DNA from: an uncultured Gemmatimonadota bacterium
GTDB lineage: Bacteria; JAAXHH01
DNA length: 64,000 bases
Direction: 5' to 3'
NCBI GenBank assembly: GCA_951812955.1
Contig: OX638340.1
Coordinates: forward strand, 2,112,001 to 2,176,000
The translations under genes and the position numbers were made by a program. Within the stretch, counting starts at the first letter, position 1. Each line of letters opens with the position of its first letter. Below, one piece after another: positions 3,500-62,378 of the stretch. The notes below the pieces were generated by a model, which made no database searches, had not been told where the DNA came from, and saw only the letters and a list, made by a program, of their open reading frames with translations.

Positions 3500-4633
3500 C
3501 TACCAGTTCGTAAAGGATCCATCCTCGCGCTGCAGCGTGTGGCCCCGGGCCGGGCGGTACGGAAGACGTTTCGCCGCATCTTCGTCGAATTCCAACCCCA
3601 GCCCCGGACGGCCGGGCGGAAGCAGATATCCTTCCTTCCATTCGACCTGGACGGGAAAGATCTCCGGGAGCATGCCCGGCAGTATAGGCAATTCCTGCAC
3701 GGCGAAGTTCGATGACGCGAGGCTCAGGTGCAGGCAGGCCGCCGTGGACACGGGGCCAAGCGGGTTGTGCGGCGCCAGGTCGATGTAGTGGGTCTCGCAC
3801 CAGCCCGCGACCTTACGCGCCTCGGTCAGTCCGCCCACGAGGCATAGGTCTACCCGGGCGTAGTTGATCAGGTCTTCCTCGATCAGTTCCCGGAATTCCC
3901 ACTTGCTGGTGAAGTGCTCGCCGACGCCGAGCGGCACGGCAACGTGCTGTCTGAGCATCCGGTAGGACGACTTGTTCTCGGAACGCAGGGGGTCTTCGAT
4001 GAAAAAGGGCCGGAAGGATTCGACGGCACGGCAGAAGGCGATCGCATCGGGTGGATCAAGACGGGTATGGACATCGCAGATCAGTTCGACGTCGTCGCCC
4101 AGGGCTTCTCTTAGCGCCTTGAACTGCGCGATGCCCTCGCGCACCGCCCTTGTGGGCTCCAATACCTCGCCTTCGTGGGGCAGCCCCCAGCGGATGAACT
4201 TCCATCCGTCTTCCACCCTGCCCTGCGCCTGGCTGACCAGTTCCTCGGAAGGGCCGTCGCCGCCGCAATGCGTATAGCAGACCACCTTGTCCCGGCACCT
4301 GCCGCCGAGCAACTCGTAAACGGGAACGCCGAGCGCTTTACCGTGGATATCCCAGAGGGCGATGTCGATAGCGCTGACCGCGGCGGACAGGGCGTGGGCG
4401 CCGGGGAAAAAACCGCCGCGGAACATCACCTGCCACAGGTGTTCCCTGCGGATCGGATCCTGGCCGACGAACCGGTCCCGGAGGGCGAGGACGATCTCCC
4501 GGACGGCCAACTCGCACCAGGTCAGGCCGCTTTCACCGATCCCGTAGATACCTTCGTCCGTCTCCACCTTGACGAAAAGGTAGTTTCGGTTTCCACCCCA
4601 GACCGGGAAGACTTTAATGTCGGAAATGCGCAT
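3500..4633 (-). CDS. Enolase-superfamily dehydratase (mandelate racemase/muconate lactonizing enzyme family, D-galactonate dehydratase-like).
   Basis: MRISDIKVF...NYLFVKVETDEGIYGIGE N-terminal capping domain followed by a TIM-barrel domain with acidic metal ligands. The size of 377 aa is typical. Confidence 0.8.
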   Translation of the reverse strand: MRISDIKVFPVWGGNRNYLFVKVETDEGIYGIGESGLTWCELAVREIVLALRDRFVGQDPIRREHLWQVMFRGGFFPGAHALSAAVSAIDIALWDIHGKALGVPVYELLGGRCRDKVVCYTHCGGDGPSEELVSQAQGRVEDGWKFIRWGLPHEGEVLEPTRAVREGIAQFKALREALGDDVELICDVHTRLDPPDAIAFCRAVESFRPFFIEDPLRSENKSSYRMLRQHVAVPLGVGEHFTSKWEFRELIEEDLINYARVDLCLVGGLTEARKVAGWCETHYIDLAPHNPLGPVSTAACLHLSLASSNFAVQELPILPGMLPEIFPVQVEWKEGYLLPPGRPGLGLEFDEDAAKRLPYRPARGHTLQREDGSFTNW

Positions 4634-5288: not shown

Positions 5289-5421
5289 GACACCACCTCC
5301 CGGTCAACGAAGGTACATCTGCAGGCCGGGGCCAGTCGCGACCGGCAGAAACCGGCCGGTACGGACAGACGCAGGCAGGGGCCGGCATGGTCCGACAGAA
5401 ACCGGCCGGTGCGGACCGGCG

Positions 5422-9091: not shown

Positions 9092-10654
9092 ATGGACGCC
9101 CTTCTTAAATCGAAATCCAATGAAGCCGATCGGTCGTCAGCCAGCTCCGGAGACCGGGAAGCCCTGACCCGTAGATCCTTTCTCAAGCAGGCGGCTTTCG
9201 TGGCCGCGGCGATGGCCGCCCCCTTTCCCGTGCTGGCGGATCCCTACGCACCGCAGTCCAGGAGCGCTGCGGCGGCCGGCGTGCGTCCGGTCCGCGTCTC
9301 CGGCCGCGTGCTTTCAGGCAGGGCGGGTCTGGGCGGCGTCGCGGTAACGGACGGACTGTCCGTCACCGCCACCGACTCGGAAGGTCGATTCGAGCTCGTG
9401 TCCAACACGATTCAGTCCTTCGTATCGATCTCAACGCCCAACGGCTACGCGTTGGAGCAGAATCCAAGCGGCATTGCCTCGTTCTACCGGCCGATCATGC
9501 CGGACGACTCCGGAGAGATGGCTGTCAGCTTCGATCTCGCGGAACTGGACGGATCGGACGAACGCCACGGATTTCTGGTGCTCGCCGACCCGCAGACCCA
9601 GGACGCCTACGAAATGGGACTCTTCCACGCGGAGACCGTGCCGGACGTCAAGGAGACCTCCGCCGCGCTGGCCGGCCGCCGGCTCTTCGGCGTGGGCTGC
9701 GGAGACATCATGTTCGACGATCTGACCCTGTACCCCGAGTACGAGCGGGGCGTGCTTCGCATGGGCATGCCCTTCTTCCAGGTCGTCGGCAACCATGACC
9801 TGGACTTCGGGCCGACCGACGACGGATCCGTCCGCACGTTCTGCCGACACTTCGGCCCCAACTACTATTCCTTCGATCGCGGAGAAATCCACTACATCGT
9901 GCTGGACAACGTGTTCTGGCACGGAGAAGGATACATCGGGTACGTGACCGACGACCAGCTCAACTGGGTAACCCAGGACCTCGCCCTGGTCGAGACCGGC
10001 AGGACCGTGGTGGTCTTCAATCATATTCCCCAGTATACCACCCGTCATATCAGAACCGGGGTCGACAGCCCGTCCATTTCGTCCACGACTGTGAACCGCG
10101 AGCGTATGTACCGCCTCCTGGAACCCTACAAGACCCACGTGTTCTCCGGCCACGTGCACGAGCACGAGCATATCTTCGAGGGCGGGATACACGAGATCGT
10201 TCAGGGCACGGTCTGTGGCGCCTGGTGGAGCGGCCCCATCTGCTGGGACGGCACGCCCAACGGTTATGGCGTCTACGAGGTCGACGGATCGGATATCCGC
10301 TGGCGGTACAAGTCCACGGGCTTGCCCGAAGACCACCAGATGCGGGTCTACCTCCGGGGCAGCGATCCCGGAGCGCCGGACGAGATCGTTGCCAATGTCT
10401 GGGACTGGGATCCCGAATGGCGCGTCGTCTGGTACGAAGACGGCATGCGGAGAGGCGCCATGGCCAGACGTCCCGGCACCGATCCGCTGGCGGAATCCCT
10501 GCACAGAGGGGCCGACCTGCCCGAACGCCGGCCCTGGGTGGAACCGGTGATCACGAATCACCTGTTCTACGCGCCGGTTTCGACCCAGGCCCGGAAGGTG
10601 GTGGTCGAAGCGACGGACCGCTTTGGCCGGACTTATGCATCCGAACTGATCTGA
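9092..10654 (+). CDS. Tat-exported calcineurin-like metallophosphoesterase.
   Basis: Twin-arginine signal TRRSFLKQAAFVAAAMAAPFPVLA. Metallophosphoesterase motifs GDIMFDD, GNHD and GHVHEHEH. The ATG at 9092 is preceded by GAAAGGAAG; the track start is a TTG three nt upstream. Confidence 0.8.
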   Translation: MDALLKSKSNEADRSSASSGDREALTRRSFLKQAAFVAAAMAAPFPVLADPYAPQSRSAAAAGVRPVRVSGRVLSGRAGLGGVAVTDGLSVTATDSEGRFELVSNTIQSFVSISTPNGYALEQNPSGIASFYRPIMPDDSGEMAVSFDLAELDGSDERHGFLVLADPQTQDAYEMGLFHAETVPDVKETSAALAGRRLFGVGCGDIMFDDLTLYPEYERGVLRMGMPFFQVVGNHDLDFGPTDDGSVRTFCRHFGPNYYSFDRGEIHYIVLDNVFWHGEGYIGYVTDDQLNWVTQDLALVETGRTVVVFNHIPQYTTRHIRTGVDSPSISSTTVNRERMYRLLEPYKTHVFSGHVHEHEHIFEGGIHEIVQGTVCGAWWSGPICWDGTPNGYGVYEVDGSDIRWRYKSTGLPEDHQMRVYLRGSDPGAPDEIVANVWDWDPEWRVVWYEDGMRRGAMARRPGTDPLAESLHRGADLPERRPWVEPVITNHLFYAPVSTQARKVVVEATDRFGRTYASELI

Positions 10655-10722
10655 GGCCGGTCCAAGACCGACTCCGAGGCATCCGAACTGATCTGAGGCC
10701 GGTCCAAGACCGACTCCGAGGC
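10639..10722. repeat. Perfect 42-bp tandem duplication (2 copies plus a partial third) spanning the stop codon of the metallophosphoesterase gene.
   Basis: atccgaactgatctgaggccggtccaagaccgactccgaggc occurs twice in tandem, followed by gtccgaaact. The first copy contains the TGA at 10652..10654. Confidence 0.9.
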
Positions 10723-10812
10723 GTCCGAAACTCACGGTGAAAACGAAGAACGGGTCATGAAGAGTCAACCATTCCCGGCAGAACGACACCGCCGGATAAA
10801 AGGGAGAACAAC

Positions 10813-11772
10813 ATGGCGAACGACGGCCTGATAAGCCCCTTCGACATCGATGACGAGGGATACTTCTGGCTCAAGGGCAATCTGCATTCCCACACGACCA
10901 ATTCCGACGGGAAGCCGTCACCCCAGGAACGGCTGGACGGGTACGTCAACCAGGGATACGATTTCCTGTGTATTTCCGATCACTACACCATAACCAGGAT
11001 CGACACGGTCAGCGCGCCGGACGATTTCGTCCTGGTGCAGGGTGCGGAGATCCATCCTGAGAACCCCTTTGGCGGCCAGACCCACCACTTCCTGGCCTAC
11101 AACATCGACGAAGACATGGATTCGAAGCGCATGCCGCCGCAGCACGTCATAGACGAGGTGCGCCGGCAGGGCGGCTCGATCTGGCTCGCCCATCCCCACT
11201 GGAGTTCGGTCAACATCCTCCGGGATACCCTGCCCCTTCACGGCCTGGCAGGCATCGAAGTCTTCAACACCACTTGCCGGTGCGCCGGACGCGGCGAGTC
11301 CTCCGTACACTGGGACGACTGGATGGACCTGCTGGGAAGGCCGATTCCAGCGCTCTCCAACGACGACTCCCACGCCCTCGAGTCGGAAAACCGGGATACC
11401 TACGGGGGCTGGAACATGGTGAAGGTCAAAGAACGCACGGCGAAGGCGATCATCGACGCGCTGGAAAGAGGCTGTGCGTACGTCAGTTCCGGACCCGAGA
11501 TCCGGGACATCCAGTTGCACCGCGTCGACGATATGGGTGATGGGAAACAGGTCGTGGAGGCGAGTATCCGGTGTTCAGAGGCGCAGAGCATTCTCGCCGT
11601 GTTCGATTCCCATGGTACGGAGTTTCGGGACCGGACAGGCCATGGAAAAACCTTCGAAGATGCCACGTTTACGCTGCGGCCCAATGTACGGTGGGTAAGA
11701 TTCGAGATCATCGCCCCGGACGGCACGAAGGCCTGGTCGAATCCCATGGATCTGGCGAAAGTCGGTCGGTGA
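10813..11772 (+). CDS. PHP-domain (polymerase/histidinol-phosphatase-like) metal-dependent phosphoesterase.
   Basis: GNLHSHTTNSDG N-terminal PHP motif, further His/Asp clusters (ISDHY, AHPHW, NDDSHA) and a size of 319 aa. Confidence 0.8.
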   Translation: MANDGLISPFDIDDEGYFWLKGNLHSHTTNSDGKPSPQERLDGYVNQGYDFLCISDHYTITRIDTVSAPDDFVLVQGAEIHPENPFGGQTHHFLAYNIDEDMDSKRMPPQHVIDEVRRQGGSIWLAHPHWSSVNILRDTLPLHGLAGIEVFNTTCRCAGRGESSVHWDDWMDLLGRPIPALSNDDSHALESENRDTYGGWNMVKVKERTAKAIIDALERGCAYVSSGPEIRDIQLHRVDDMGDGKQVVEASIRCSEAQSILAVFDSHGTEFRDRTGHGKTFEDATFTLRPNVRWVRFEIIAPDGTKAWSNPMDLAKVGR

Positions 11773-11897
11773 TACCGCCGCGGACCGCTACAGTGGGCGT
11801 TCAGAACTCGGAGGTCGAATCCCATGGATCTGGCGAAAGTCGGTCGGTGATACCGCCGCGGACCGGCACGGTGGGCGTTCAGGACTCGGAGACTGCC
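11722..11897. repeat. 88-bp tandem duplication (2 copies, 3 mismatches) spanning the stop codon of the PHP-domain gene.
   Basis: ggtcgaatcccatggatctggcgaaagtcggtcggtgataccgccgcggaccg...ggcgttcag.actcggag is repeated with an 88-bp period. Copy 1 contains the TGA at 11770..11772. The duplication is mirrored in the spurious ORFs 11571..11972 and 11400..12041, which show repeated peptides. Confidence 0.9.
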
Positions 11898-17061: not shown

Positions 17062-19452
17062 TCAAAATGATCCACTGCCGAGTGGCATATTCACAAACGC
17101 GCAATGAAGAATGACATTGCTGTAGGAGTCAATCGTCTCGCCCGCACGGGGTGTGAAGGTACTTGTAAAACTGCGGCTGCCTGTGACGTTCCCAAAATGC
17201 CTGGCGCCAGTAGGAGCGGGACCGCTACGCCAATTGATAGAGGCACTGGTGTATAGAAACAAATGTGCAGCAATCCCGCCTCCAGTGTTCATTCCGGTTA
17301 TGGTCAGTTTGAGTCGACCGCCGGAGACTTCTTCGAAGGTCACGGACCCGGCGGTGCTCGGATAGCTGCTCGTACCGGAAATTGAAGCAGTACGGCTTCT
17401 CAACATCGGTGGAGGCGGCGGAGGCTCGGTCACCGTCAACGACGCCGTACCGGACTTGCCGTCCACCTCTGCTGTTATCGTCGTGGATCCGGCATTCCGT
17501 GCCCTGGCCAGTCCCGTGGTGCTTATGGTCGCAACCGACGTGTTGCTGCTCGTCCACGTAAAAGTCTTCCCGGTAATCTCCATGTTGTTCGAGTCATAGG
17601 CTGTCGCAGTGAATCGTTGCGTCTCGCCTTCTTCGATCGAACGGGAAGATGGAGACACGGCAACCCGGTCAACTACGGGGGGTGGAGGCGGAGGTTCCGT
17701 CACCCTTAACGTCGCTGTGCCGGATACGCCGTCGACGGTTGCCGAGATCGTCGTGGAACCTGCATCCAGGCCCCTCGCCAACCCAGTTACACTTATCGTG
17801 GCTACCGTCTCATCAGAACTTGACCACGTAAACGTCTTGCCCGTTATCTCGGAATTGTCCGACGTGTGGGCGGTGGCAGAAAACCGCCGGGTCTCACCCT
17901 CCTCGATTGACGCTGAGGAGGGACTCACTGTCACGGTTGCGACCATCGGTGGTGGTGGCGGAGGTGGTTCGGTCACTGTGAGCGTCGCCGTGCCGGATAC
18001 TCCATCAGTCGTCGCCGTGATCATCGCTTCGCCCATTCCGACACCAGTCGCCAGGCCGTTCGCGTCGACCGTCGCCACCATGTCATCCGAACTCGACCAT
18101 GTAAACTCCACGTCCGGGATTTCCATCCCGTCCGACGTCATTGCCATCGCCGCGAACTGCTGCGTCGCGCCTACCTCGATCGTCGCTTCAAGTGGACTCA
18201 CTGACACCGTCGATACCACCGGCTCGGGTGGCGGTGGTTCGGTCACTGTGAGCGTCGCCGTGCCGGATACTTCGTCAGTCGTCGCCGTGATCATCGTTTC
18301 GCCCGTTCCGACACCGGTCGCCAGGCCATTCGCGTCGACCGTCGCAACCATCTCGTCAGAACTCGACCACGTAAACTCCGCGTCCGGGATTTCCATCCCG
18401 TCCGACGTCATTGCCATCGCCGCGAACTGCTGCGTCGCGCCTTCTTCGATCGTGGCTTCCGATGGACTCACTGTCACGGTTGCTACAACTGGCTCTACTG
18501 GCTCGGGTGGAGGCGGTTCGGTCACCGTCAGTGTCGCCATGCCGGATACACTGTCCGCGGTAGCCGTGATCATCGCCTCGCCTGCTCCTACACCACTCGC
18601 CAGGCCGTTCGCGTCGACCGTCGCCACCATCTCGTCAGAACTCGACCACGTAATCTCCGCGTCCGGGATATCCATCTCGTCCGATGTCGAAGCCATCGCC
18701 GCGAACTGCTGCGTCGCGCCTACCTCGATCATCGCTTCAGGTGGACTCACCGACACAGTCGATACCACCGGATCGGGAGGCGGAAGTTCGGCTACGTTAA
18801 TGGTAACCGGCGAACTCGCTATACCGTCCGCCGTGGCGCGGACCGTTGCCGTACCCGCTGCGACTGCCGTGGCAACGCCGGCCGATGTAATGGTCACTTT
18901 GCTGGTATCGCTGCTCGCCCATGAGAAACTGACACCTTCGCGAATGGCGCCTCCAGACGTCCGGGCCGTCGCCGTGAAGGTCACCATTTCCCCAACCATC
19001 AGCTCCTGGGTCGAGGAAGGAGAGATCGTGACCCGGGCCACGGCGGCCTGGGTGACCGTGATCGTCACCGGTTCGCTCACGATGCCGTTTCCCGTCGCTC
19101 TGATGGTCGCCGTACCAACACTTACCGCGGTTGCCCGTCCACCGGCACTGATGGTTACTACGGCGGTATTACTGCTGGACCAGGTATAATTGACACCGCT
19201 TATTACGGCGCCGTCGGAAGCCTTGGCGGTCGCAGCCAACTGTTGTGTTCTGCCCACTTCCAGAGACACCATGTTCGGACTCACTTCGATGCGAGAGACC
19301 GTCGGTGCGGGGGGAGGTGTCGGCGTCGGTGTGGGTGTTGTCGGCTCGGCCGGTCTGGTCGGGGAGGAGTCCCCACCGCCGCACCCGACATTCAGCAATG
19401 CGCTTGAAACCGCTATCATGATGAGACCGGTAGCAATCGACCTGAATGACAT
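17062..19452 (-). CDS. Large surface lipoprotein with about 8 bacterial Ig-like (Big_2) domains, Pro-rich linkers and a distinct ~120-aa C-terminal domain.
   Basis: The lipoprotein-type leader ends ...ALLNVGCGGG. The module V.VSP...V..G.T.QL.A.....G..I........W.SS...VATV...G...AV..G.A.I.A...G is repeated and separated by TEPPPPEP linkers. Three central copies are nearly identical at the DNA level. Confidence 0.75.
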   Translation of the reverse strand: MSFRSIATGLIMIAVSSALLNVGCGGGDSSPTRPAEPTTPTPTPTPPPAPTVSRIEVSPNMVSLEVGRTQQLAATAKASDGAVISGVNYTWSSSNTAVVTISAGGRATAVSVGTATIRATGNGIVSEPVTITVTQAAVARVTISPSSTQELMVGEMVTFTATARTSGGAIREGVSFSWASSDTSKVTITSAGVATAVAAGTATVRATADGIASSPVTINVAELPPPDPVVSTVSVSPPEAMIEVGATQQFAAMASTSDEMDIPDAEITWSSSDEMVATVDANGLASGVGAGEAMITATADSVSGMATLTVTEPPPPEPVEPVVATVTVSPSEATIEEGATQQFAAMAMTSDGMEIPDAEFTWSSSDEMVATVDANGLATGVGTGETMITATTDEVSGTATLTVTEPPPPEPVVSTVSVSPLEATIEVGATQQFAAMAMTSDGMEIPDVEFTWSSSDDMVATVDANGLATGVGMGEAMITATTDGVSGTATLTVTEPPPPPPPMVATVTVSPSSASIEEGETRRFSATAHTSDNSEITGKTFTWSSSDETVATISVTGLARGLDAGSTTISATVDGVSGTATLRVTEPPPPPPVVDRVAVSPSSRSIEEGETQRFTATAYDSNNMEITGKTFTWTSSNTSVATISTTGLARARNAGSTTITAEVDGKSGTASLTVTEPPPPPPMLRSRTASISGTSSYPSTAGSVTFEEVSGGRLKLTITGMNTGGGIAAHLFLYTSASINWRSGPAPTGARHFGNVTGSRSFTSTFTPRAGETIDSYSNVILHCAFVNMPLGSGSF

Positions 19453-19578: not shown

Positions 19579-22500
19579 TCACTTCCCGTTCCCGTTCCAG
19601 CGTCCTCTGCCGTTGCGTTTCCTTCCATTCATTTCCACCTGTTTCCATCCGCTTTCACCGCTGTGTACGGGAGCACCGGCCAGTCGGACGCGCTTCGCGT
19701 CGATCGATTCGCGCAGCGTTTTCAGCAACTCATCCGAGGGCCTGACGCGGAAATCACTCCCTGCCCTGACGCCGATCTCACTCTGATCTGCTGTAGACAC
19801 TTCTAGCACTACGTCGCAATTCCCCGGGTAAGTCTCCAGCACGTGTTTGATCGATACGAGGTTCTCATCCGCTACCTGTTCGTGCTCCATGGTCACCACG
19901 ACGGACCGCGCCAGCCGGTCCCGCGCATCCGTCAGTGAAATGATCTCGGAAGCGATGACCTTGTTGTCCTCTTCTTTTTTCGACAGGTGTCCATGTACGA
20001 GGACCAGCGAGTCGATCGTCACGAGTTCGCGATGCAGTGCGTACGGTTCCGAAAAGACGAGCACCTCACCCGAACCGGAGAAGTCTTCGAGCGTTACGAA
20101 GGCCATGGTCTTGCCGTTTCGATCCACGATGGGCTTGATTTCGGTCACGATACCACCGACCACGACGGTGTCCTGCCGGCCGTTTGCGTGGTCGAGGCGC
20201 CGCATTTCCGCCGTCGTAAAGGCCCGAATGTCTTCCTCGTATTCCTTCAGCGGATGCCCCGTCACATAAAATCCCAGCAGTTCCTTCTCGAGGCCCAGTT
20301 CCTGGCTTGCCGGCCAACGGGGGACGAGCGGCAGCACCGGCTTGTGTACTTCCAGATTCGCACCCGCTCCCATCCCGTCGAGGTCGAAAAGGGAGGTCTG
20401 TCCCTTCTCCCTGTCGTTCTGACGGGTCTGCGCCCCTTCAATGACCGTGTCGAGCACTTCCATGAGCTGTGCCCGGTGCCCCTCGAGGCTGTCGCAGGCG
20501 CCGGCCTGGATCAGGCTTTCGAGCACCCGCTTGTTTACCAGCCGCAGATCGATGTGCTCGCAAAGTCCGTACACATCTTCGAAGCGTCCATGTTCCTTCC
20601 TCGCCTCGACGATGGATTCCACCGCGGCCTGGCCCACGTTCTTGATCGCACAGAGCCCGAATCGGATGGAATCTCCTTCGACGACGAAGGTCTTGTCGCT
20701 TCTGTTGACATCGGGCGGCAGCACGTCGATGCCCATTTTCCTGCATTCGTTGATCAACACGACGATTTCTTCGGTATTCGACATCGTGTTGGACAGCAGT
20801 GCGGCCATGAACTGTACCGGGTAGTGCACCTTCAGGTAAGCTTCCTGGAAGGCGAGGACGGCATAGCCCGCCGAATGGCTCTTGTTGAACGCGTAACCGC
20901 CGAAGTATTCGATCAATCCAAACACTTCCTCCGCGATATCCTTCTCGATGCCGTTCTCAACCGCGCCATCGACGAAATTCCGACGTTCTTCGGCCATGAC
21001 TTCGGGCTGCTTCTTGGCCATGGCCTTCCTAAGGAAATCGGCCCGTCCCAGGGTGTAGCCCGCCATGTCGCGGGCGATCTGCATCGCCTGCTCCTGGTAG
21101 ACGATGAGCCCGAAGGTTTCCTTGAGTGCCGTCTCCATCACGGCGTGGTGATACGTAACCTTCTTGCGGCCGTGCTTCCGGTCGATGTAGTCGTCCACGA
21201 CACCGCCGTTCAGGGGTCCCGGCCTGCAGAGCGCGTTCATGGCGATCAGGTCATCGACGCCGTCCGGCCGCAGGCGACGGAGGAATTCGTGCAGCCAGCC
21301 GCTATGGAACTGGAAAATCCCGGTCGTTTCTCCCCGCCGGAACAGGTCGAGGGTCTTCGGATCATCCAGGGGGATATCATCCAGCTCGATCTCGTCGCCC
21401 GTCGTGTCTTTGATCATCGCGATGGCGTCCTGGATGACAGAAAGGTTCTGCAGTCCCAGGAAGTCCATCTTCGGCAGCCCGATGTCCTCCATGAGCTCGC
21501 CGGGATACTGGGTAACGATCGTATCCTTGTTACTGGGCTTGTACAGCGGCACGTAGTCGGTCAGTTCGCCCGGCGTGATCACGACGCCGGCCGCGTGGAC
21601 CGAGGCGTGGCGCGCAAGACCTTCGAGGGTCTTCGCGTACTGGATCAACTGGCCGTCCGTACCGCCGCCGTCGGCCATCTGGCGAAGTTCCGGGACCTGG
21701 TCTATGGCCCGGTCGAGGGTGATCTTCAATTCGGTCGGAACCAGCTTGGCCACGCGATCCACGTCGCCGTAGGACATGCCGAGGACGCGGCCCACGTCAC
21801 GGATCGCCGCCTTCGCGCCCATGGTGCCGAAGGTGATGATCTGGGCTACGCTGTTCTTGCCGTATTTCTCCACCACGTAGTTGATGACCTTGTCCCGTTC
21901 ACGGTCCGCAAGGTCGATGTCGATATCGGGCATGCTGACGCGCTCGGGATTCAGGAAGCGTTCGAAAAGCAGACCATAGCTGATGGGGTCGATATTCGTG
22001 ATGCCCAGCACGTAGGCGACCATGCATCCGAGGCCCGATCCCCTCGTCATGAGCGGGATACCCTGCTCCGCGGCAAAACGGGCGATATCTTCGACGATGA
22101 GGAAGTAGCTGGGATAGCCCATCTGGTTGATTACCCCGAGTTCGTATTCGAGGCGGGCCTTCAACTCGGGGGTGACGGTGTCGTAACGCGCCTCCATCCC
22201 GTCGAAAGACAGCTTGCGCAGGTACGCGTCCGCACTGTCATAGTCCTCCGGCAACGGGAAGTGGGGAAACTTGAAATTGCCCATTTCCATTTCAAATTCA
22301 ATGGACTCGGCGATGGATACGGTGTTTGCCAGGGCGCCGGAAACATGGCCGAACAACTGGCCCATCTCGTCCGCGTTCTTGAAGTAGAGCGAATCCGTGG
22401 CAAACCTGAGCCGCTTGGGGTCGTTCAGTTCCTTCCCGGTCTGGATGCAGACCAGTACGTCCTGGGCGGGCGCGTCGTCCCGTCTGAGGTAGTGGGCGTC

Positions 22501-25006: not shown

Positions 25007-25194
25007 GCCATACAGCCAGAGGAACCGAACGCGGCGCGGCCGACAGCACGTCCGGCGGCTCGGCAACCGAACGCGGTGCGGCAACCGGCGCGGCCTACAG
25101 CGGTCCGCAGCGCGGCCGGCGGAACGTTTGAAGATAAACAGCGGTTTAAGGGAATACAGAGTCTATTCAGTTTGACATGGAAAGCGTACCAGGA

Positions 25195-25310
25195 AGCGCG
25201 TACCAGGAAGCGCGTACCTACGGACCGTCGCGCTTCTGAGCAGGCCGTCGCACTTCTAAGCAGGACGTCGCACTTTCGAGCAGGCCGTCGCACTTCTGAG
25301 AATTGACGGC
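25195..25310. repeat. Intergenic tandem repeats upstream of pdxJ: a 14-bp unit (gcgcgtaccaggaa, ~2.6 copies) followed by a 20-bp unit (gtcgcacttctgagcaggcc, ~3.7 copies with point variants).
   Basis: Read directly from the sequence at 25195..25232 and 25237..25310. Confidence 0.85.
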
Positions 25311-26133: not shown

Positions 26134-26298
26134 ACACTTGAGCGATTCGAGTAACTTGAGTACTTGAGTACTTGAGTAGTTTGAGTAATAAAGTATTATG
26201 GAGTTTATTCTGAATGAGGAAGTTTGTACCGAACGAGATGTTTATACTAAACGAGTTCATCTGATTCACAAACACGATACCCCCTGGAGGTTGTTTAC

Positions 26299-38447: not shown

Positions 38448-39368
38448 TCAGTCCGTTTCCGGTGGGAGAATGGCGCGAACGTTAACGAATCCCGGGACAT
38501 GCTGCCACGCGTTGCCCCCGTCTTCCGTGTACCAAAGCCCACCCGGCGTGGCGCCGGCCAGCCAGGTCGATGTTGAAACCGGGTGGCTTCGCACGGCCGC
38601 ACACAGGTGCCGGGGTCCGGTGCGAACCCAGTGGCCCGAGCCATCCCCAACGGCCACTCCGTGTTCCGTGCCGGCAATTATATCGTCGCCGGCCAGCGTC
38701 AATTCGAAAACCGCGCCTCCGTCCGGCGTATGTCCCACCGAGTCCCAGCGCGCCCCGTCTTCGCTGCGCCAGATGCCCCGGTCGTCGGTGCCCGCCCAGA
38801 ACTGTCCGTGCATGAATGCCAGTGCGCGAATGGCGGTGCCCGACAGACTGGTCCGCCGCCATGTCGCGCCCGAATCGTCTGCAATCAGGACGCCGCCTTC
38901 GGTACCGACTAACCAGGAGGATGCATTCCCGGGGTGCACCAGGATGGCGTTGGTAAACCGCTCATTGACGCGGAGGCCGTCCGAGTGGTGGGTCCAGCGG
39001 ACAGCGCCGGTGTCGTCGTGGCGACCGGTGGCGATCCCGTAGGGGGATCCGGCAACCACTCCGGGAGTACCCGCGATCGGCGCGATGGCCATGACTTCCG
39101 TGACCGTTTCGTCGTGCAACTGCTTCCAGCGGTCCGCCTGGTCGGTCTGGTCAGATTGGCCTGCCTGGTCAGCTTGGTCAGCTTGGTCGGTTCCGATCGA
39201 CCACTCCCAGAGCCCACTGCCCCAGCTCGCGCCCGCCACCAGACGGTCCGGTTCGCGGATCAGGCTCGAAATGCCGTATTCCTGGGCGCCGATGCGCGTC
39301 CAGGATCCACCGATCGTGCCGTGGTATACGCCTTTGGAACCGATGAGCCAGTGATCGCGGGGGATCAT
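38448..39368 (-). CDS. BNR/Asp-box repeat beta-propeller protein (sialidase-like / Ycf48-like fold).
   Basis: Repeated S/T-x-D-x-G-x-T/W-W motifs (WRSEDGARW, WYTEDGGNAW, DDSGATW). Contains a DQADQADQAGQSDQTDQAD low-complexity insert encoded by a short ggtcag-type DNA microsatellite at ~39150-39195. Confidence 0.6.
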   Translation of the reverse strand: MIPRDHWLIGSKGVYHGTIGGSWTRIGAQEYGISSLIREPDRLVAGASWGSGLWEWSIGTDQADQADQAGQSDQTDQADRWKQLHDETVTEVMAIAPIAGTPGVVAGSPYGIATGRHDDTGAVRWTHHSDGLRVNERFTNAILVHPGNASSWLVGTEGGVLIADDSGATWRRTSLSGTAIRALAFMHGQFWAGTDDRGIWRSEDGARWDSVGHTPDGGAVFELTLAGDDIIAGTEHGVAVGDGSGHWVRTGPRHLCAAVRSHPVSTSTWLAGATPGGLWYTEDGGNAWQHVPGFVNVRAILPPETD

Positions 39369-40711: not shown

Positions 40712-40835
40712 GGGGATTGGGCCTGATCATCCCTGATTAACCCTGAACAACCCTGATCAATCCTGATCGATCCTGCTAAACTCTGATCGCCCCCATCCTT
40801 GACCCTCATCACCGGCCCCCCTATACTCTCCTACC

Positions 40836-55822: not shown

Positions 55823-57031
55823 CTAACTGCTCACCATCACCTTCTTCAAGGCCGCGATAAACGCCTCGTTCTCCTCCGGAAGCCCGGCGGTGACGCGGAT
55901 CCAGCCATCGATGTTCCAGCGTGCCTTCGCGTTGCCCACCCGGACGTTGTGATCTTCCCGGAGGCGACGCACGAGTTCGTCCACGTCCGTCTTCATGTTC
56001 ATCATCACGAAACTCGACTCGCTGGGCGCGTATTCGATGCCCATTTCGTCCAGTTGCGCGTAGAAATACTTTTTCCCATCGATGGCCAGTTCGCGCGAAC
56101 GCGTCATGTGGGTCTCGTCGTCGAGGGCCGCCGATGCGGCGTGCGTTGAGAGCAGGGTGAGCGTATTGCCCCGGTGGCTGTTCATCCGATCGATCATCGC
56201 GGGGTTGGCGACCGCATAGCCCACCCGCATGCCGGCCATGCCGAACACCTTGGAGAAAGTGCGGGTCACGATCACGTTCGGGTGGTCCGCGATCAGCGAC
56301 GCCGCGCCTTCCCGGTCCTCCGCGTTCTCCGCGAATTCGATATAGGCCTCGTCGACGAGTACCAGAACCCGCTCGGGGATGGACGCGACGAAGGGCTTCA
56401 ACTGGGACAAAGGGGTCAATTGGCCCGTGGGATTACCCGGGGTGGTTACGACCACTACGGCGGTCCGGTCCGTTACGGCGTTGCTGAGACCGTCGAGATC
56501 GGGCTTCATGCCCTCCAGGAGCGGTACCCGAACCGATTCGGCGTTCTGCATGTTGGCGAGTCTTGTCAGAAAACCAAAACCCGGCAGGCTTTCAACGACT
56601 TCCTGTCCCTCGCGAATGAAGGCGTGGCCGATGGCAAAAAGCAGGTCGGACGACCCGGCGCCCACGGCGATCCACGAATCTTTCACCGGCGCGAAGGGAC
56701 TGTCCGTCCACTCCACGACGGGAACGCCGTGCCTGCGGGCGAGTTTTCCCAGGAGGTCCGGATTCTGGCCATACCGGTTGATGCTGGTAACCAGTGACAG
56801 CACCGCCTCCACGGCCCTGGGGGACGGCCCCAACGCGTTCTCGTTGGCGTCGATGCGCACCAGTCCCGGGGGTACGCCCCAGCCACGGACAGAAGGTCCG
56901 CCCACCATCTGCGCTACGGCTTCAAAGCTGCCCACCGACAGTGCACCGGCGCCAACCAGGGCTCCCCTTAAAAACCCGCGTCTCGACAGGCCGGACCCTC
57001 CCGTTGAAAGATCGTTACTGGTATCTTTCAT
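55823..57031 (-). CDS. Tat-exported class I/II aminotransferase of the histidinol-phosphate aminotransferase (HisC) family.
   Basis: Twin-arginine leader MKDTSNDLSTGGSGLSRRGFLRGALVGAGALSVGSFEAVAQ. HisC-like core with the PLP-lysine region RTFSKVFGMAGMRVGY. The start is trimmed to the ATG at 57031, 7 nt after AAGGAG; the track ORF starts at 57115. Confidence 0.8.
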   Translation of the reverse strand: MKDTSNDLSTGGSGLSRRGFLRGALVGAGALSVGSFEAVAQMVGGPSVRGWGVPPGLVRIDANENALGPSPRAVEAVLSLVTSINRYGQNPDLLGKLARRHGVPVVEWTDSPFAPVKDSWIAVGAGSSDLLFAIGHAFIREGQEVVESLPGFGFLTRLANMQNAESVRVPLLEGMKPDLDGLSNAVTDRTAVVVVTTPGNPTGQLTPLSQLKPFVASIPERVLVLVDEAYIEFAENAEDREGAASLIADHPNVIVTRTFSKVFGMAGMRVGYAVANPAMIDRMNSHRGNTLTLLSTHAASAALDDETHMTRSRELAIDGKKYFYAQLDEMGIEYAPSESSFVMMNMKTDVDELVRRLREDHNVRVGNAKARWNIDGWIRVTAGLPEENEAFIAALKKVMVSS

Positions 57032-57263
57032 TTTCATGCTCCTTGATTGCGTTATCGGAATGTTCGATAGGTAGATTATGGATCTGCAACCCATTATGAT
57101 ACAGGCCCGTTGCACGGACAGGCAAGGCCTAATGCGTTGACCTTGACGCTCTTGGGGACCACCCGTAGTTTACAGTGAAGGTGAGCGCAAAGGCCGCGGT
57201 GGTCAAGCGCCGCCGGGACATCCGCGCCGCAAACGCGGATACGACCTGCCCGGTGACGACGAG

Positions 57264-60200
57264 GTGTCGCGGTTTCTGGCATGCATGAGCGACCGTGGGC
57301 GCAGCGACGCGAGGCAACCGTGGCGCAGCGACGCGAGGCAACCGTGGCGCAGCGACGCGAGGCAACCGTGGCGCAGCGACGCGAGGCAACCCACGAAGTA
57401 TTATCTCCTGAAGGAGACCGCAATCTTCAGCAAGTCCCCTCTTGAAACAACAGAAACCCACCACCTGCTGGACCGGCTCCTGGCCGAACGCATACTCATC
57501 ATCGACGGGGCCATGGGCTCGGTCCTGCAGGGCCATGCCCTTGAAGAATCCGATTTCCGCGGCGATTCGTTCAAAGACCACCCTGTACCGCTGCGCGGCG
57601 ACCTCGACCTGCTGTCGATCACACAACCGGATCTCATCGAACAGGTTCACCGGCAGTACCTGGACGCCGGCGCGGACATCATCGAGACGAACACCTTCAA
57701 TGCCACGGCCATCTCGCAGGCCGACTATGGCCTGCAGGACCGGGTATACGACATCAACCTGGCGGCGGCAAAGATCGCGAAACGGGCCGCCGCGTCCGCC
57801 ATGGCCGCCGATCCGGAACGCCCCCGCTTCGTAGCCGGCGCCCTGGGACCCACCACCCGGTCGGCCTCCGTAGCCTCCGACGTCAGCGACCCGGCCTTCC
57901 GGTCCATCACCTTCGACGGCCTCGCTGACGCTTACGGCGAACAGGCCCGCGGACTCCTCGACGGCGGGGTGGACCTGCTCCTGGTCGAGACCCAGATCGA
58001 CACGCTCAACCTGAAAGCCGCGCTGTTCGCCATCAACACCCTCTTCGACGAAGGCATGCGCCGCGTACCGCTCATGGCTTCGTTCTGCATCGTCGACGCC
58101 AGCGGCCGCACGCTCTCTGGCCAGACCGTGGAGGCGTGCTGGACGTCCATTCGTCACGGCGAACTCTACAGCGTGGGGATCAACTGCGCCCTGGGCGCCA
58201 CGGAGCTGCGTCCCTATATCGAGGAACTGTCGGCCATCGCGGACCTTCCCGTCACCTGCTATCCGAACGCGGGCCTGCCCAACGAGATGGGCGGCTACGA
58301 CGACACACCCGAGTACATGGCCGAGATTCTGGGTGAATTCGCCGAAGAGGGCTGGCTCAACATGGTCGGCGGATGTTGCGGCACCACCCCTGATCACATC
58401 GCCGCGATCTCGGAAGCCGTCAGGCAGCGAGGGAAACTGCGCGTTGCCCACCCAGGCGAACCCCTGTCACGGTACAGCGGACTGGAGACCTTCACCGTGC
58501 GGCCCGACGGAAATTTCACCATGATCGGTGAGCGGACGAACGTGACGGGTTCGCGCAAGTTCGCCCGGCTCATACGGCAGGAGAAGTACGAAGAAGCACT
58601 CGGCGTGGCCCGTCAGCAGATCGAGGGCGGGGCGAACATCATCGACGTGAACATGGACGAGGGCCTCCTCGACAGCGAACAGGCGATGACCACGTTCCTG
58701 AACATGGTCGCATCGGAACCAGACATCGCCACTACGCCCGTCATGATCGACAGTTCGAGCTGGCCGGTCATCGAGGCGGGGCTCAAATGCGTGCAGGGCA
58801 AAGGGATCGCCAATTCCATCAGCCTGAAGGAAGGCGAAGAGGTGTTCAAGAGCCAGGCACGGCTGGCGAGGCGGTACGGTGCCGCCGTGGTGGTGATGGC
58901 CTTCGACGAGGAGGGTCAGGCCACGGACCCGGACCACAAGTTGGAGATCCTGAGCCGATCCTACCGGATCCTCACCGAAGAGATCGGCATGGATCCGACG
59001 GATATCATCTTCGATCCGAACATCCTCACCGTGGCCACCGGCATCGAGGAACACGACGCGTACGCCGTCAACTTCATCGAGGCCGTCCGGCGGCTCAAAG
59101 CGCTACACCCTCTGGCCAAGGTCAGCGGCGGCGTGAGCAACATCTCCTTCTCCTTCCGCGGCAACGACCACATCCGGGAGGTGATGCACGCCGCCTTCCT
59201 GTATCACGCCATCCAGGCGGGCCTGGACATGGGCATCGTCAACGCGGGGCAACTGGCGATCTACGAAGACATCGATCCGGAATCGCTCGTCATGGTCGAG
59301 GACGTCCTCCTCAACCGGCGGCCCGACGCCACCGAGCGGTTGCTGGAGTTTGCCGAATCGAGAAAAGGAACCGCCACCGAACGAGCGCGGAAGGACGAAA
59401 ACTGGCGCGCGGGCAGCCTGGAGGAACGCGTTTCCCACGCCCTGGTCAACGGTATTGCCGACCACGTCGAGGAGGACATGGAGGAGGCGCTGCAACGGTA
59501 CGACCGGCCGCTCCACATCATCGAGGGGCCCCTCATGGCCGGCATGTCCATCGTGGGAGACCTCTTCGGTGAGGGTAAGATGTTCCTGCCGCAGGTCGTG
59601 AAGAGCGCGCGGGTTATGAAAAAAGCCGTTGCCCTCCTGATACCGCACATGGAGGCAGAACACGGGGACGGCGGTGAGCGGCAGTACCAGGGTACCATCC
59701 TCCTGGCCACGGTGAAGGGGGACGTGCACGACATCGGGAAGAACATCGTGGGCGTGGTGCTGGGGTGCAACAACTACCGCATCATCGACCTGGGCGTCAT
59801 GGTCCCGGCGGAGAAGATCATCGGTACGGCCGTGGAAGAAGGCGTCGACCTCATCGGCTTGAGCGGGCTGATCACCCCGTCCCTTCACGAGATGATCCAC
59901 GTGGCCCGCGAGGTCGAGCGCAACGGCTTCGAAATGCCACTGCTCATCGGCGGCGCCACGACGAGCCGGCGGCACACGGCGATCAAGATCGAGCCCGCGT
60001 ATCACGGACCTACCGTGCATGTGACGGACGCGTCGAGAGCCGTGGAAGTGGTGGGCAACCTGATCAGCGACGATTTGAGACCCGATTACGCGCGGCGCGT
60101 TCGAGACGATTACCGGCGTGTACGCGACACCTACGAAAACAGGACGCCGCGCTCGCCCCTGGTGCCGTTCGCCGAAGCGAGCGCGCGGCAGCCCGTCCTC

Positions 60201-61151
60201 GAATGGTCGGAAGATACTATCGCCGTTCCCAAATTCACCGGCGTGCGGGTCGACGACGATTTCCCGCTGCAAGAGCTCGTTCCCTATATAGACTGGACAC
60301 CCCTCTTCGGCGCATGGGAGTTGCGGGGACGTTATCCGGCCATCCTGGAGGACGATACGGTCGGCGAAGAGGCGCGGAAGTTGTTTGATGACGCGCAAGA
60401 ACTGCTGGAGGGGATCGTGGACGGCCGTCTGCTAAGGGCCCGGGCCGTATGGGGATTCTTCCCCGCCCACGCCTACGGCAACGACATCATCGTTCACGGC
60501 GACTCAGGCCGCGACGAGGTGCTCACCACATTTCACATGCTGCGCCAGCAGCGTCCCCGGTCGGCTGATGGACCGTGCATCGCCCTTTCCGATTTCGTGG
60601 GCCCCGAAGGCACGGAAGACTACATCGGCGCCTTCGCGGTTACGGCCGGAATCGGTCTCGACGAAGTAGTCAGACGGTACGAGGCCGATCACGACGACTA
60701 CCGTGCCATCATGGTGAAAGCGCTCGCCGACCGGCTGGCCGAAGCTTTTGCCGAGCAAACCCATCAAAGGGCGCGTCGCGCCTGGGGATATGGACGGGAC
60801 GAGAAGCTGGACGGCGAAGACCTGATCCGGGAGAAGTATCGGGGCATCCGGCCCGCGCCCGGTTACCCGGCCTGTCCCGATCACACCGAAAAGCGGCGGC
60901 TCTTCGACCTGCTACGGGCCGAAGAACGGATAGGGATCGAACTCACGGAAAGCTACGCCATGGACCCGCCGCCGTCCGTCGCCGGTCTATACTTCGGACA
61001 TCCCGATGCGCGGTATTTCAACGTGGGTAAAATCGGACGGGACCAGGTGGAAGACTACGCCCTCCGCAAACGGATGACCGTCGAATCCGTCGAACGATGG
61101 CTGGCGCCCAACCTGGACTATGAGCCTGTGGATAGTCCTGCGAGATACTAA
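57264..61151 (+). CDS. metH: Cobalamin-dependent methionine synthase (all four modules: Hcy-binding, pterin-binding, B12-binding, AdoMet-binding). The 5' boundary is uncertain.
   Basis: [12 protein letters not shown] ... pterin-binding barrel ... B12-binding DxHxxG-type region ([11 protein letters not shown]) ... C-terminal reactivation domain. The annotated start is GTG 57264 (ATG 57285 in frame), which would prepend ~50 residues including RSDARQPW x4 from a DNA minisatellite. An in-frame AAGGAG at 57411 suggests the real start may be downstream. Confidence 0.93.
57295..57391. repeat. 24-bp minisatellite (gtggcgcagcgacgcgaggcaacc) x4, lying within the annotated 5' end or leader of metH.
   Basis: Copies at ~57295, 57320, 57344 and 57368. 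The first has one extra g and the others are identical. Confidence 0.9.
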
Positions 61152-61186: not shown

Positions 61187-61462
61187 CTATCCCACCGTAA
61201 ACAGCAACTTTTTACCAATCGCCTTGGCGTATTTCCCAAGAGTAGACAAGCGGATGTCTTCCGCATGGTTCTCGATTCTGGAAATGGCAGACTTCCTGGT
61301 CTTCAACCTGCGCGCCACTTCTTCCTGGGTAAGACCGGCATCCTCTCTCGCCTGCCGAAGTAGTACACCGATCTTGAACTCCTGGTATCCCTCATCGTAT
61401 TTCTCGGCAAATTCTGCATCCTTGACCCTGCGATATGCCACGTACTCACTCAAGTCGCTCAT
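61187..61462 (-). CDS. XRE-family helix-turn-helix protein with antitoxin-like architecture (RelE/ParE/HigB-partner type); no cognate toxin gene is adjacent.
   Basis: 91 aa. N-terminal acidic segment DAEFAEKYDEGYQEFKIGVLLRQARE followed by HTH GLTQEEVARRLKTRKSAISRIENHAEDIRLSTLGKYAKAIGKKLLFTV. Confidence 0.75.
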   Translation of the reverse strand: MSDLSEYVAYRRVKDAEFAEKYDEGYQEFKIGVLLRQAREDAGLTQEEVARRLKTRKSAISRIENHAEDIRLSTLGKYAKAIGKKLLFTVG

Positions 61463-62263: not shown

Positions 62264-62304
62264 GGGCGGTCGTCACATGTTCGCGTGTTCGGTTGACGGG
62301 CAGA

Positions 62305-62378
62305 CCATTATCCGCGGTCGCAGTCCGCGCCTTGGATACGGGTAGACAACTATCCGCGGTTGTAGGCCGCGCCTTCGA
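62305..62378. repeat. Two ~30-bp imperfect direct repeats (cc.a.tatccgcggt.g.ag.ccgcgcctt) 12 bp apart. One covers the ogt stop codon and last codons; the other lies just downstream.
   Basis: 62305..62336 ccattatccgcggtcgcagtccgcgccttgga and 62347..62378 caactatccgcggttgtaggccgcgccttcga. The ogt stop is at 62350..62352. Confidence 0.7.

Follow-up and report, generated by a model that had tools for sequence, protein, structure and literature searches.

A probable AUC start codon for metH behind a minisatellite-bearing leader in an uncultured Gemmatimonadota lineage

Results

The metH locus

We analysed a 64,000-nucleotide stretch of the genome of an uncultured Gemmatimonadota bacterium (GenBank contig OX638340.1, positions 2,112,001 to 2,176,000; the whole stretch is called the window below), in which the reading frame of the cobalamin-dependent methionine synthase gene, metH, opens on a minisatellite. 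We conclude that MetH probably initiates at a non-canonical AUC codon at 57423, behind a Shine–Dalgarno (SD) sequence, and that the repeat array most likely lies in the untranslated leader. Read mechanically, the metH open reading frame (ORF) extends on the plus strand from a GTG at 57264 to 61151 and encodes 1295 amino acids, the first part of which reads RSDARQPW three times and then RSDARQPT. An earlier note on this DNA had listed GTG 57264 and ATG 57285 as the only canonical in-frame starts, and inspection of the ORF agrees: upstream of the ATC at 57423, the metH frame holds these two alone, and the upstream in-frame stop lies at 57144. The frame stays open back to GTG 57264 only because the 24-nucleotide (nt) period of the repeat is divisible by three and no stop falls in that frame of the unit.

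The enzyme is, as judged from its domains, a complete and ordinary cobalamin-dependent methionine synthase. The product matches PF02574, PF00809, PF02607, PF02310 and PF02965 (S-methyl_trans, Pterin_bind, B12-binding_2, B12-binding and Met_synt_B12), all far above the cut-offs, and the five-module architecture of homocysteine-binding, pterin-binding, B12 cap, B12-binding and activation domains is complete. The best MetH match in the PDB has E = 4.8e-110; there are strong matches to the solved human and Thermus MetH structures, and similarity to the solved structures starts at ORF residue 69. As we re-interpret it, the metH coding sequence would run from 57423 to 61151 (plus strand; 1242 amino acids plus stop), would retain all five Pfam domains, and would be 90% identical to the product of a close relative, L088, over 1240 residues. 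The 53 codons in front of it (57264–57422, plus strand, containing GTG 57264 and ATG 57285) are judged to lie outside the protein. The MetH of the window is like canonical MetH in all five domains and differs only in the proposed start codon and the leader.

Sequences compared

The comparison set consists of seven related sequences from six lineages, with the gene order aminotransferase (minus strand) then metH (plus strand). They were recovered by protein searches and look-ups, apart from L088 (GenBank LXNJ01007379.1), which came from a metagenome scan for the motif SD-ATC-GAAACCCAC; that scan yielded this one extra relative, which is array-free, and no second copy of the window's species. 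In L088, metH is intact and full length, and its product is 90.4% identical to that of the window. L081 and L084 share 86–89% amino-acid identity with the window MetH. For L082, a gapped tblastn alignment gives about 60%, and the N-terminal fragment called in it, P0060, is 78% identical. The leaders of L086 and L087 are identical. A more distant sequence, L083 (75–77% identity), has an ordinary ATG start (MNTFDQLNQLLSERIL). The nearest named homologues carry the label Candidatus Latescibacteria, and on these names alone the lineage would probably be kin to Latescibacterota.

The relatives differ in quality. By their record names, L081, L082, L084 and L085 appear to be long-read contigs, with a stated coverage of 28x for L081 and 15x for L084 and a low coverage of 4x for L085 and 2x for L082. 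Frame changes occur within metH in L081, L084 and L085; in L084 and L085, the ones that were examined proved to be small indels. Two separately assembled short-read contigs, L086 and L087, have one nucleotide deleted at the same place in an AAA run of metH (about 826–832 in L086 and about 1000–1006 in L087). The deletion splits the gene after about codon 117 and leaves the remaining ~860 codons intact, and either a genuine recent frameshift or an error common to both contigs would account for it. L088, L081 and the window merit most weight.

The start site

The hexamer AAGGAG occupies 57411–57416 on the plus strand and is followed, after 6 nt, by an in-frame ATC at 57423–57425, exactly as the earlier note had placed them. 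The note had put this ATC about 24 codons before the conserved ERIL; the distance is in fact 21 codons, and 27 codons separate it from the DGAMG motif. The alignment of orthologues that the note had proposed for locating the conserved N-terminus gives a consistent picture. In the eight sequences examined (the window, L081, L082, L084, L085, L086, L087 and L088), AAGGAG-N6-ATC-TTC is invariant, and in all seven relatives, as in the window, ATC stands exactly 27 codons ahead of DGAMG. The hexamer itself shows no variation of the synonymous type.

AAGGAG evidently works as an SD sequence in this genome segment, since nine of its 26 occurrences in the window lie 3–8 nt before a canonical start that opens an ORF of 60 codons or more, the neighbouring aminotransferase being one of the nine ORFs. 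A crude SD survey of all long stop-to-stop frames was uninformative, because this GC-rich DNA contains many spurious open frames. Two other cases in the window of AAGGAG followed by ATC and a long ORF, near 20678 (minus strand) and 53297, were checked and discarded, as both lie inside longer ORFs.

Four of the relatives lack a usable canonical start. L082, L086 and L087 contain no in-frame ATG, GTG or TTG from the upstream stop to the enzyme core, and in L082 none of these codons occurs in any frame within 75 nt upstream of ATC. The sole in-frame canonical codon of L085 is a TTG nine codons before DGAMG, which falls inside the conserved N-terminal region, so that a canonical start is missing from three relatives outright and from L085 in effect. 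Upstream of ATC, in-frame canonical starts are found in the window and, as an ATG 15 codons before ATC (position −15), in L088, L081 and L084. Of the 78 more distant metH loci analysed as a control, every one has a canonical in-frame codon in the zone where a start is expected (70 ATG and 8 GTG or TTG). A CTG-CTG pair at −13/−12 was also considered as the metH start and rejected: L088 reads CAG-CTC there, and no SD sequence lies ahead of it.

The pattern of substitution changes at the same codon. In the 15 codons upstream of ATC, the variable columns number 12, 10 and 8 at codon positions 1, 2 and 3, and 9% of pairwise codon differences are synonymous. Between ATC and DGAMG, the counts are 6, 7 and 18 with 52% synonymous, and in the enzyme core they are 8, 5 and 27 with 66% synonymous. 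There is no codon periodicity upstream of ATC; downstream, changes are mostly at third positions. The comparison of L088 with L081, both of which have the upstream ATG, gives no synonymous and seven nonsynonymous differences in the 15 upstream codons, against 12 and five downstream (Fisher p = 0.0046). Protein-coding constraint therefore begins at ATC. The codons GAG-AAG-GAG that contain the SD sequence show zero synonymous variation, unlike the neighbouring coding sequence, and their invariance would suit an RNA signal better than codons.

The length of the N-terminus points the same way. Counted from ATC, DGAMG falls at residue 27; in 223 homologues it lies mostly at residues 14–22, and 27 is inside their range. 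Counted from GTG 57264, it falls at residue 80, and the maximum among those homologues is 58. No protein in a collection of 5.8 billion sequences covers the RSDARQPW extension; the best match to a 136-residue N-terminal query covers only about its last 92 residues. Two signs of a translated repeat were sought, a coding signature upstream of ATC and homologues carrying the repeat, and neither was found.

AUC or an upstream canonical start

The earlier note had left two alternatives: either the minisatellite is 5′ untranslated sequence ahead of a non-canonical start codon, or MetH carries an N-terminal tail that varies with repeat number. The invariant SD–ATC arrangement in eight of eight sequences, the four relatives devoid of a usable canonical start and the onset of the coding signature at ATC all favour the former, and the latter is disfavoured by an extension found in no homologue and by the missing coding signature upstream of ATC.

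Several observations nevertheless count against initiation at AUC. The window has GTG 57264 and ATG 57285 in frame with no intervening stop, and L088, L081 and L084 have their in-frame ATG 15 codons upstream of ATC; L085 would gain an ATG at the same place if the G that is lacking from its last repeat unit (a 1-nt deletion) had been lost through a sequencing error. L085 has an array of its own, and the periods of the two independent arrays (24 nt in the window, 18 nt in L085) are both divisible by three, which hints weakly that the frame is preserved. The contigs of four relatives appear to come from long reads, two of them at low stated coverage, and have 1-nt indels in metH, and a frameshift is common to L086 and L087, so that errors in these leaders are possible. 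Finally, AUC is an inefficient start in Escherichia coli (bioRxiv 10.1101/063800).

The main alternative is that MetH starts upstream, at GTG 57264 or ATG 57285 in the window and at the −15 ATG in relatives, and so bears a repeat-encoded and possibly length-variable tail, either as its only form or beside the AUC product. The frame is open from 57264, both array periods preserve it, and the GTG-TCG-CGG at 57264 in the window resembles the ATG-TCG-CGG of L088. The −15 codon, however, is ATT in L086 and L087, where an in-frame TAG follows, and AAG in L082, and no metH-frame canonical codon upstream of ATC is preceded by an SD sequence in any of the sequences. The earlier note had asked whether close relatives show the same extension in repeat-free form. 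The ATG at −15 would allow one in three of them, but codons −15 to −1 have no coding signature even between L088 and L081, where none of the seven differences is synonymous. An upstream start would also leave the invariance of AAGGAG, with its lack of synonymous variation, at odds with a coding role, would give the enzyme an N-terminus of unprecedented length (80 residues to DGAMG against at most 58), and would require a repeat peptide seen in no homologue. Were the metH of L086 taken for a pseudogene on this model, all three of its lesions would fall in the first ~145 codons and none in the following ~860, a remainder that is open and 89% identical. We therefore regard an upstream start as unlikely, and the RSDARQPW-tailed MetH is most likely an artefact of the open reading frame. 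Initiation at AUC 57423, with the array in the untranslated leader, is the reading that we think probable from the comparative data.

The tandem array

The earlier note had described a 24-base-pair minisatellite of four copies at the start of the ORF. Tandem Repeats Finder reports it at 57292–57391 (plus strand) with a period of 24, 4.1 copies, 98% matches and a score of 191. The unit, CGCAGCGACGCGAGGCAACCGTGG, occurs in exact copies at 57300, 57324 and 57348 and in a copy at 57372 that has diverged at its 3′ end by three mismatches; a degenerate fifth copy (63%) lies 5′ of the array. Within the 64-kb window the unit is confined to the array, and the number of matches expected from shuffled sequence is 0.

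None of the seven related sequences from six lineages carries the 24-base-pair array. At its position they have one degenerate equivalent, for example GTGCAGCGGTACAGGAAGT in L081, so that a leader segment already present was duplicated to give the array, which is private to the window's lineage. L085 has an unrelated array at the same place in the leader, just before its SD sequence (18 nt x 3.9; L085 2349–2417), and a second one (18 nt x 2.9; L085 2288–2338) that duplicates the promoter region. The units in L085 are unrelated to the 24-mer of the window, and the unit of the 2349–2417 array includes an ATG.

It could be supposed that the array is an error of assembly or sequencing and absent from the organism, as its three exact copies are known from the window alone and the metagenome scan turned up no confirming second sequence from the same species. 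The diverged last unit and the degenerate leading copy are, however, what a natural history of duplication would leave. L085 has its independent array with a different unit at the same place in the leader, and the 64-kb window has about 11 tandem arrays. We consider an artefact highly improbable.

There are about ten further arrays in the window (5321–5416, 10637–10729, 11735–11891, 17963–18791, 25184–25300, 26149–26187, 39148–39188, 40722–40788 and 62296–62375), among them a 270-nt x 3.0 repeat within a long minus-strand ORF (17062–19452). Tandem duplications of this kind appear to be common in the genome. A containment test did not separate genic from intergenic positions for the short arrays, since GC-rich DNA keeps many frames open. 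The minisatellite itself seems ordinary, one of many in the genome, and any function is only putative.

Promoters and leader RNA

A promoter-like site for metH, TTGACG (57143–57148) and TAGTTT (57166–57171) separated by 17 nt, spans 57143–57171 on the plus strand. It had been proposed in the earlier note, and it is indeed present and lies in a block that is highly conserved in relatives. A consensus scan nonetheless passes over it in the window, where TAGTTT matches three of six positions, and calls the L081 orthologue, TTGACG-17-TAGATT. The divergent aminotransferase has a site of its own on the minus strand (TTGCCT-18-TATCAT, 57096–57125), which the scan calls in the window, and its L081 orthologue (TTGCCA-18-TATCAT) is called as well; both hexamers fall in conserved blocks. 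In L081 the scan found two promoter sites against 0.2 expected. The most conserved blocks of the intergenic region fit two back-to-back sigma-70-like promoters. Transcription of metH would then begin near 57178, giving an untranslated leader at 57178–57422 (plus strand) of about 245 nt in the window and about 130 nt in the array-free relatives.

Just ahead of the −35 hexamer of metH is the motif GGA(C/T)GGGCAAG. A single copy is present in the window (about 57114–57126), where it overlaps the −35 hexamer of the aminotransferase promoter, and in L088 it occurs three times with a spacing of roughly 20 nt (about 4150–4215, minus strand). It could be a regulator-binding site.

A leader of this length in front of a methionine-cycle gene recalls those with S-adenosylhomocysteine (SAH; RF01057), S-adenosylmethionine (SAM) and cobalamin (RF00174) riboswitches, and the leader might be an undescribed riboswitch or other regulatory RNA of the methionine cycle, with the array as part of it or modulating it. 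In addition to its length, several of its blocks are conserved, as is a small hairpin (ATCCGCG-N7-CGCGGAT; 57220–57240, plus strand), and alifold pairs the 5′ end of the leader with AUCUUC at the start codon. The stem of the hairpin is present in most relatives, is disrupted in L088 and shows no compensatory changes. Unlike the known riboswitch leaders, the metH leader has neither an Rfam match nor a covariation-supported fold. Rfam gives no match at E ≤ 10 on the metH strand of the window leader (the lone match, to 2dG-I, is on the opposite strand with E = 5.5), none at E ≤ 1 in five relatives and none at the gathering threshold across the whole window. The earlier note had been unable to match an SAH or SAM riboswitch with confidence, and these scans, which include the cobalamin family, bear it out. 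The leader folds no better than shuffled sequences (z = +0.08 for the window and +1.30 for L088), and alifold on the leader alignment gives a covariation term of +1.17, with no convincing compensatory support. Local folds around the ribosome-binding site are unremarkable and reveal no conserved sequestration of the SD sequence. As the best-conserved blocks match the two promoters and the array is missing from all relatives, a riboswitch seems to us very unlikely.

The window alone reads CTCCTG where the relatives read CTCGAG, which allows a UCUCC-UGAA-GGAGA hairpin over the SD sequence (57404–57417). A 48-nt fold with this hairpin has an energy of −8.5 kcal/mol and makes up 46% of the ensemble; 32 of 200 shuffles were as stable or more so, which makes it statistically unremarkable.

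Neighbouring genes

The divergent gene encodes a class I/II aminotransferase (55823–57035, minus strand; PF00155 in orthologues). Its likely start is an ATG 7 nt past the AAGGAG at 57044, and the predicted N-terminus, MKMKDTSNDLSTGGSGLSRRGFLRGALVGAGAL, resembles a twin-arginine export signal, which is unusual in that enzyme family. Directly downstream of metH on the opposite strand lies a small gene with a helix-turn-helix domain (61187–61462, minus strand), the position of which is kept in L081 (9807–10082).

Discussion

We suggest that the array is a recent, lineage-private tandem duplication of a short stretch within the 5′ leader of metH. Ribosomes would be placed by the perfect SD sequence AAGGAG, 6 nt ahead of AUC 57423, and initiation there with initiator tRNA would yield a 1242-residue enzyme with an N-terminus of normal length. 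Such initiation is presumably inefficient, as at near-cognate starts elsewhere, and a weak start would hold MetH translation low or make it sensitive to the status of initiation factors. The array would have no specific function except to lengthen the leader.

The nearest parallels are the E. coli genes infC and pcnB, both of which start at AUU and which are the only confirmed natural non-canonical starts in that organism; initiation at AUC in E. coli reaches about 1–2% of that at AUG and gives an N-terminal methionine (bioRxiv 10.1101/063800). As in these two genes, the metH start is a near-cognate AUN codon behind an SD sequence and is conserved among orthologues, and low initiation under IF3 discrimination would likewise be expected (bioRxiv 10.1101/063800). 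The differences are that the metH codon is AUC, that the gene does not encode a translation or RNA-metabolism factor, that no autoregulatory logic is evident, and that the use of AUC is deduced here from comparative sequence alone.

The array invites comparison with the variable-number tandem repeats and contingency loci that occur in bacteria at the 5′ ends of genes, with which it shares near-perfect head-to-tail copies upstream of or at a gene start and the appearance of independent arrays at the same position in two lineages (the window and L085). Unlike those loci, it is known from a single copy number and, on the present reading, lies neither in the coding sequence nor between the promoter hexamers; a change in copy number would therefore not act as an on/off switch. 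One speculative route by which it might affect expression is a +1-frame mechanical ORF (57320–57445, plus strand). This ORF is opened by GTG codons in units 1–3 (57320, 57344 and 57368), each behind GAGG-N5, and crosses the metH SD sequence and ATC to end at a TGA (57443–57445) 20 nt beyond ATC. It is not conserved in relatives, because they lack the array. A bolder proposal is that AUC is a deliberate throttle on MetH, for instance one sensitive to IF3 or initiator tRNA, and that the arrays are contingency elements tuning a weak start; copy number would then determine how many ribosomes reach AUC, or block it, through the GAGG-N5-GTG starts of the +1-frame ORF. To this we give little credence.

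The locus also carries a lesson for annotation. Standard gene callers do not consider AUC, and the metH start would be a recurrent trap for them. In the window they produce a spurious 53-residue repeat tail, and in L081 and L084 they use the upstream ATG. In other relatives the called start falls well inside the gene: in L085 it is the TTG nine codons before DGAMG, and in L082, L086 and L087 it is the methionine of DGAMG itself.

A conserved AUC start would be a further, modestly interesting example of the known but rare class of near-cognate bacterial starts. If the interpretation is correct, a rare start codon of this kind has been kept throughout a clade in the gene of a central metabolic enzyme, and low or regulated translation of MetH would have been selected in this uncultured lineage.

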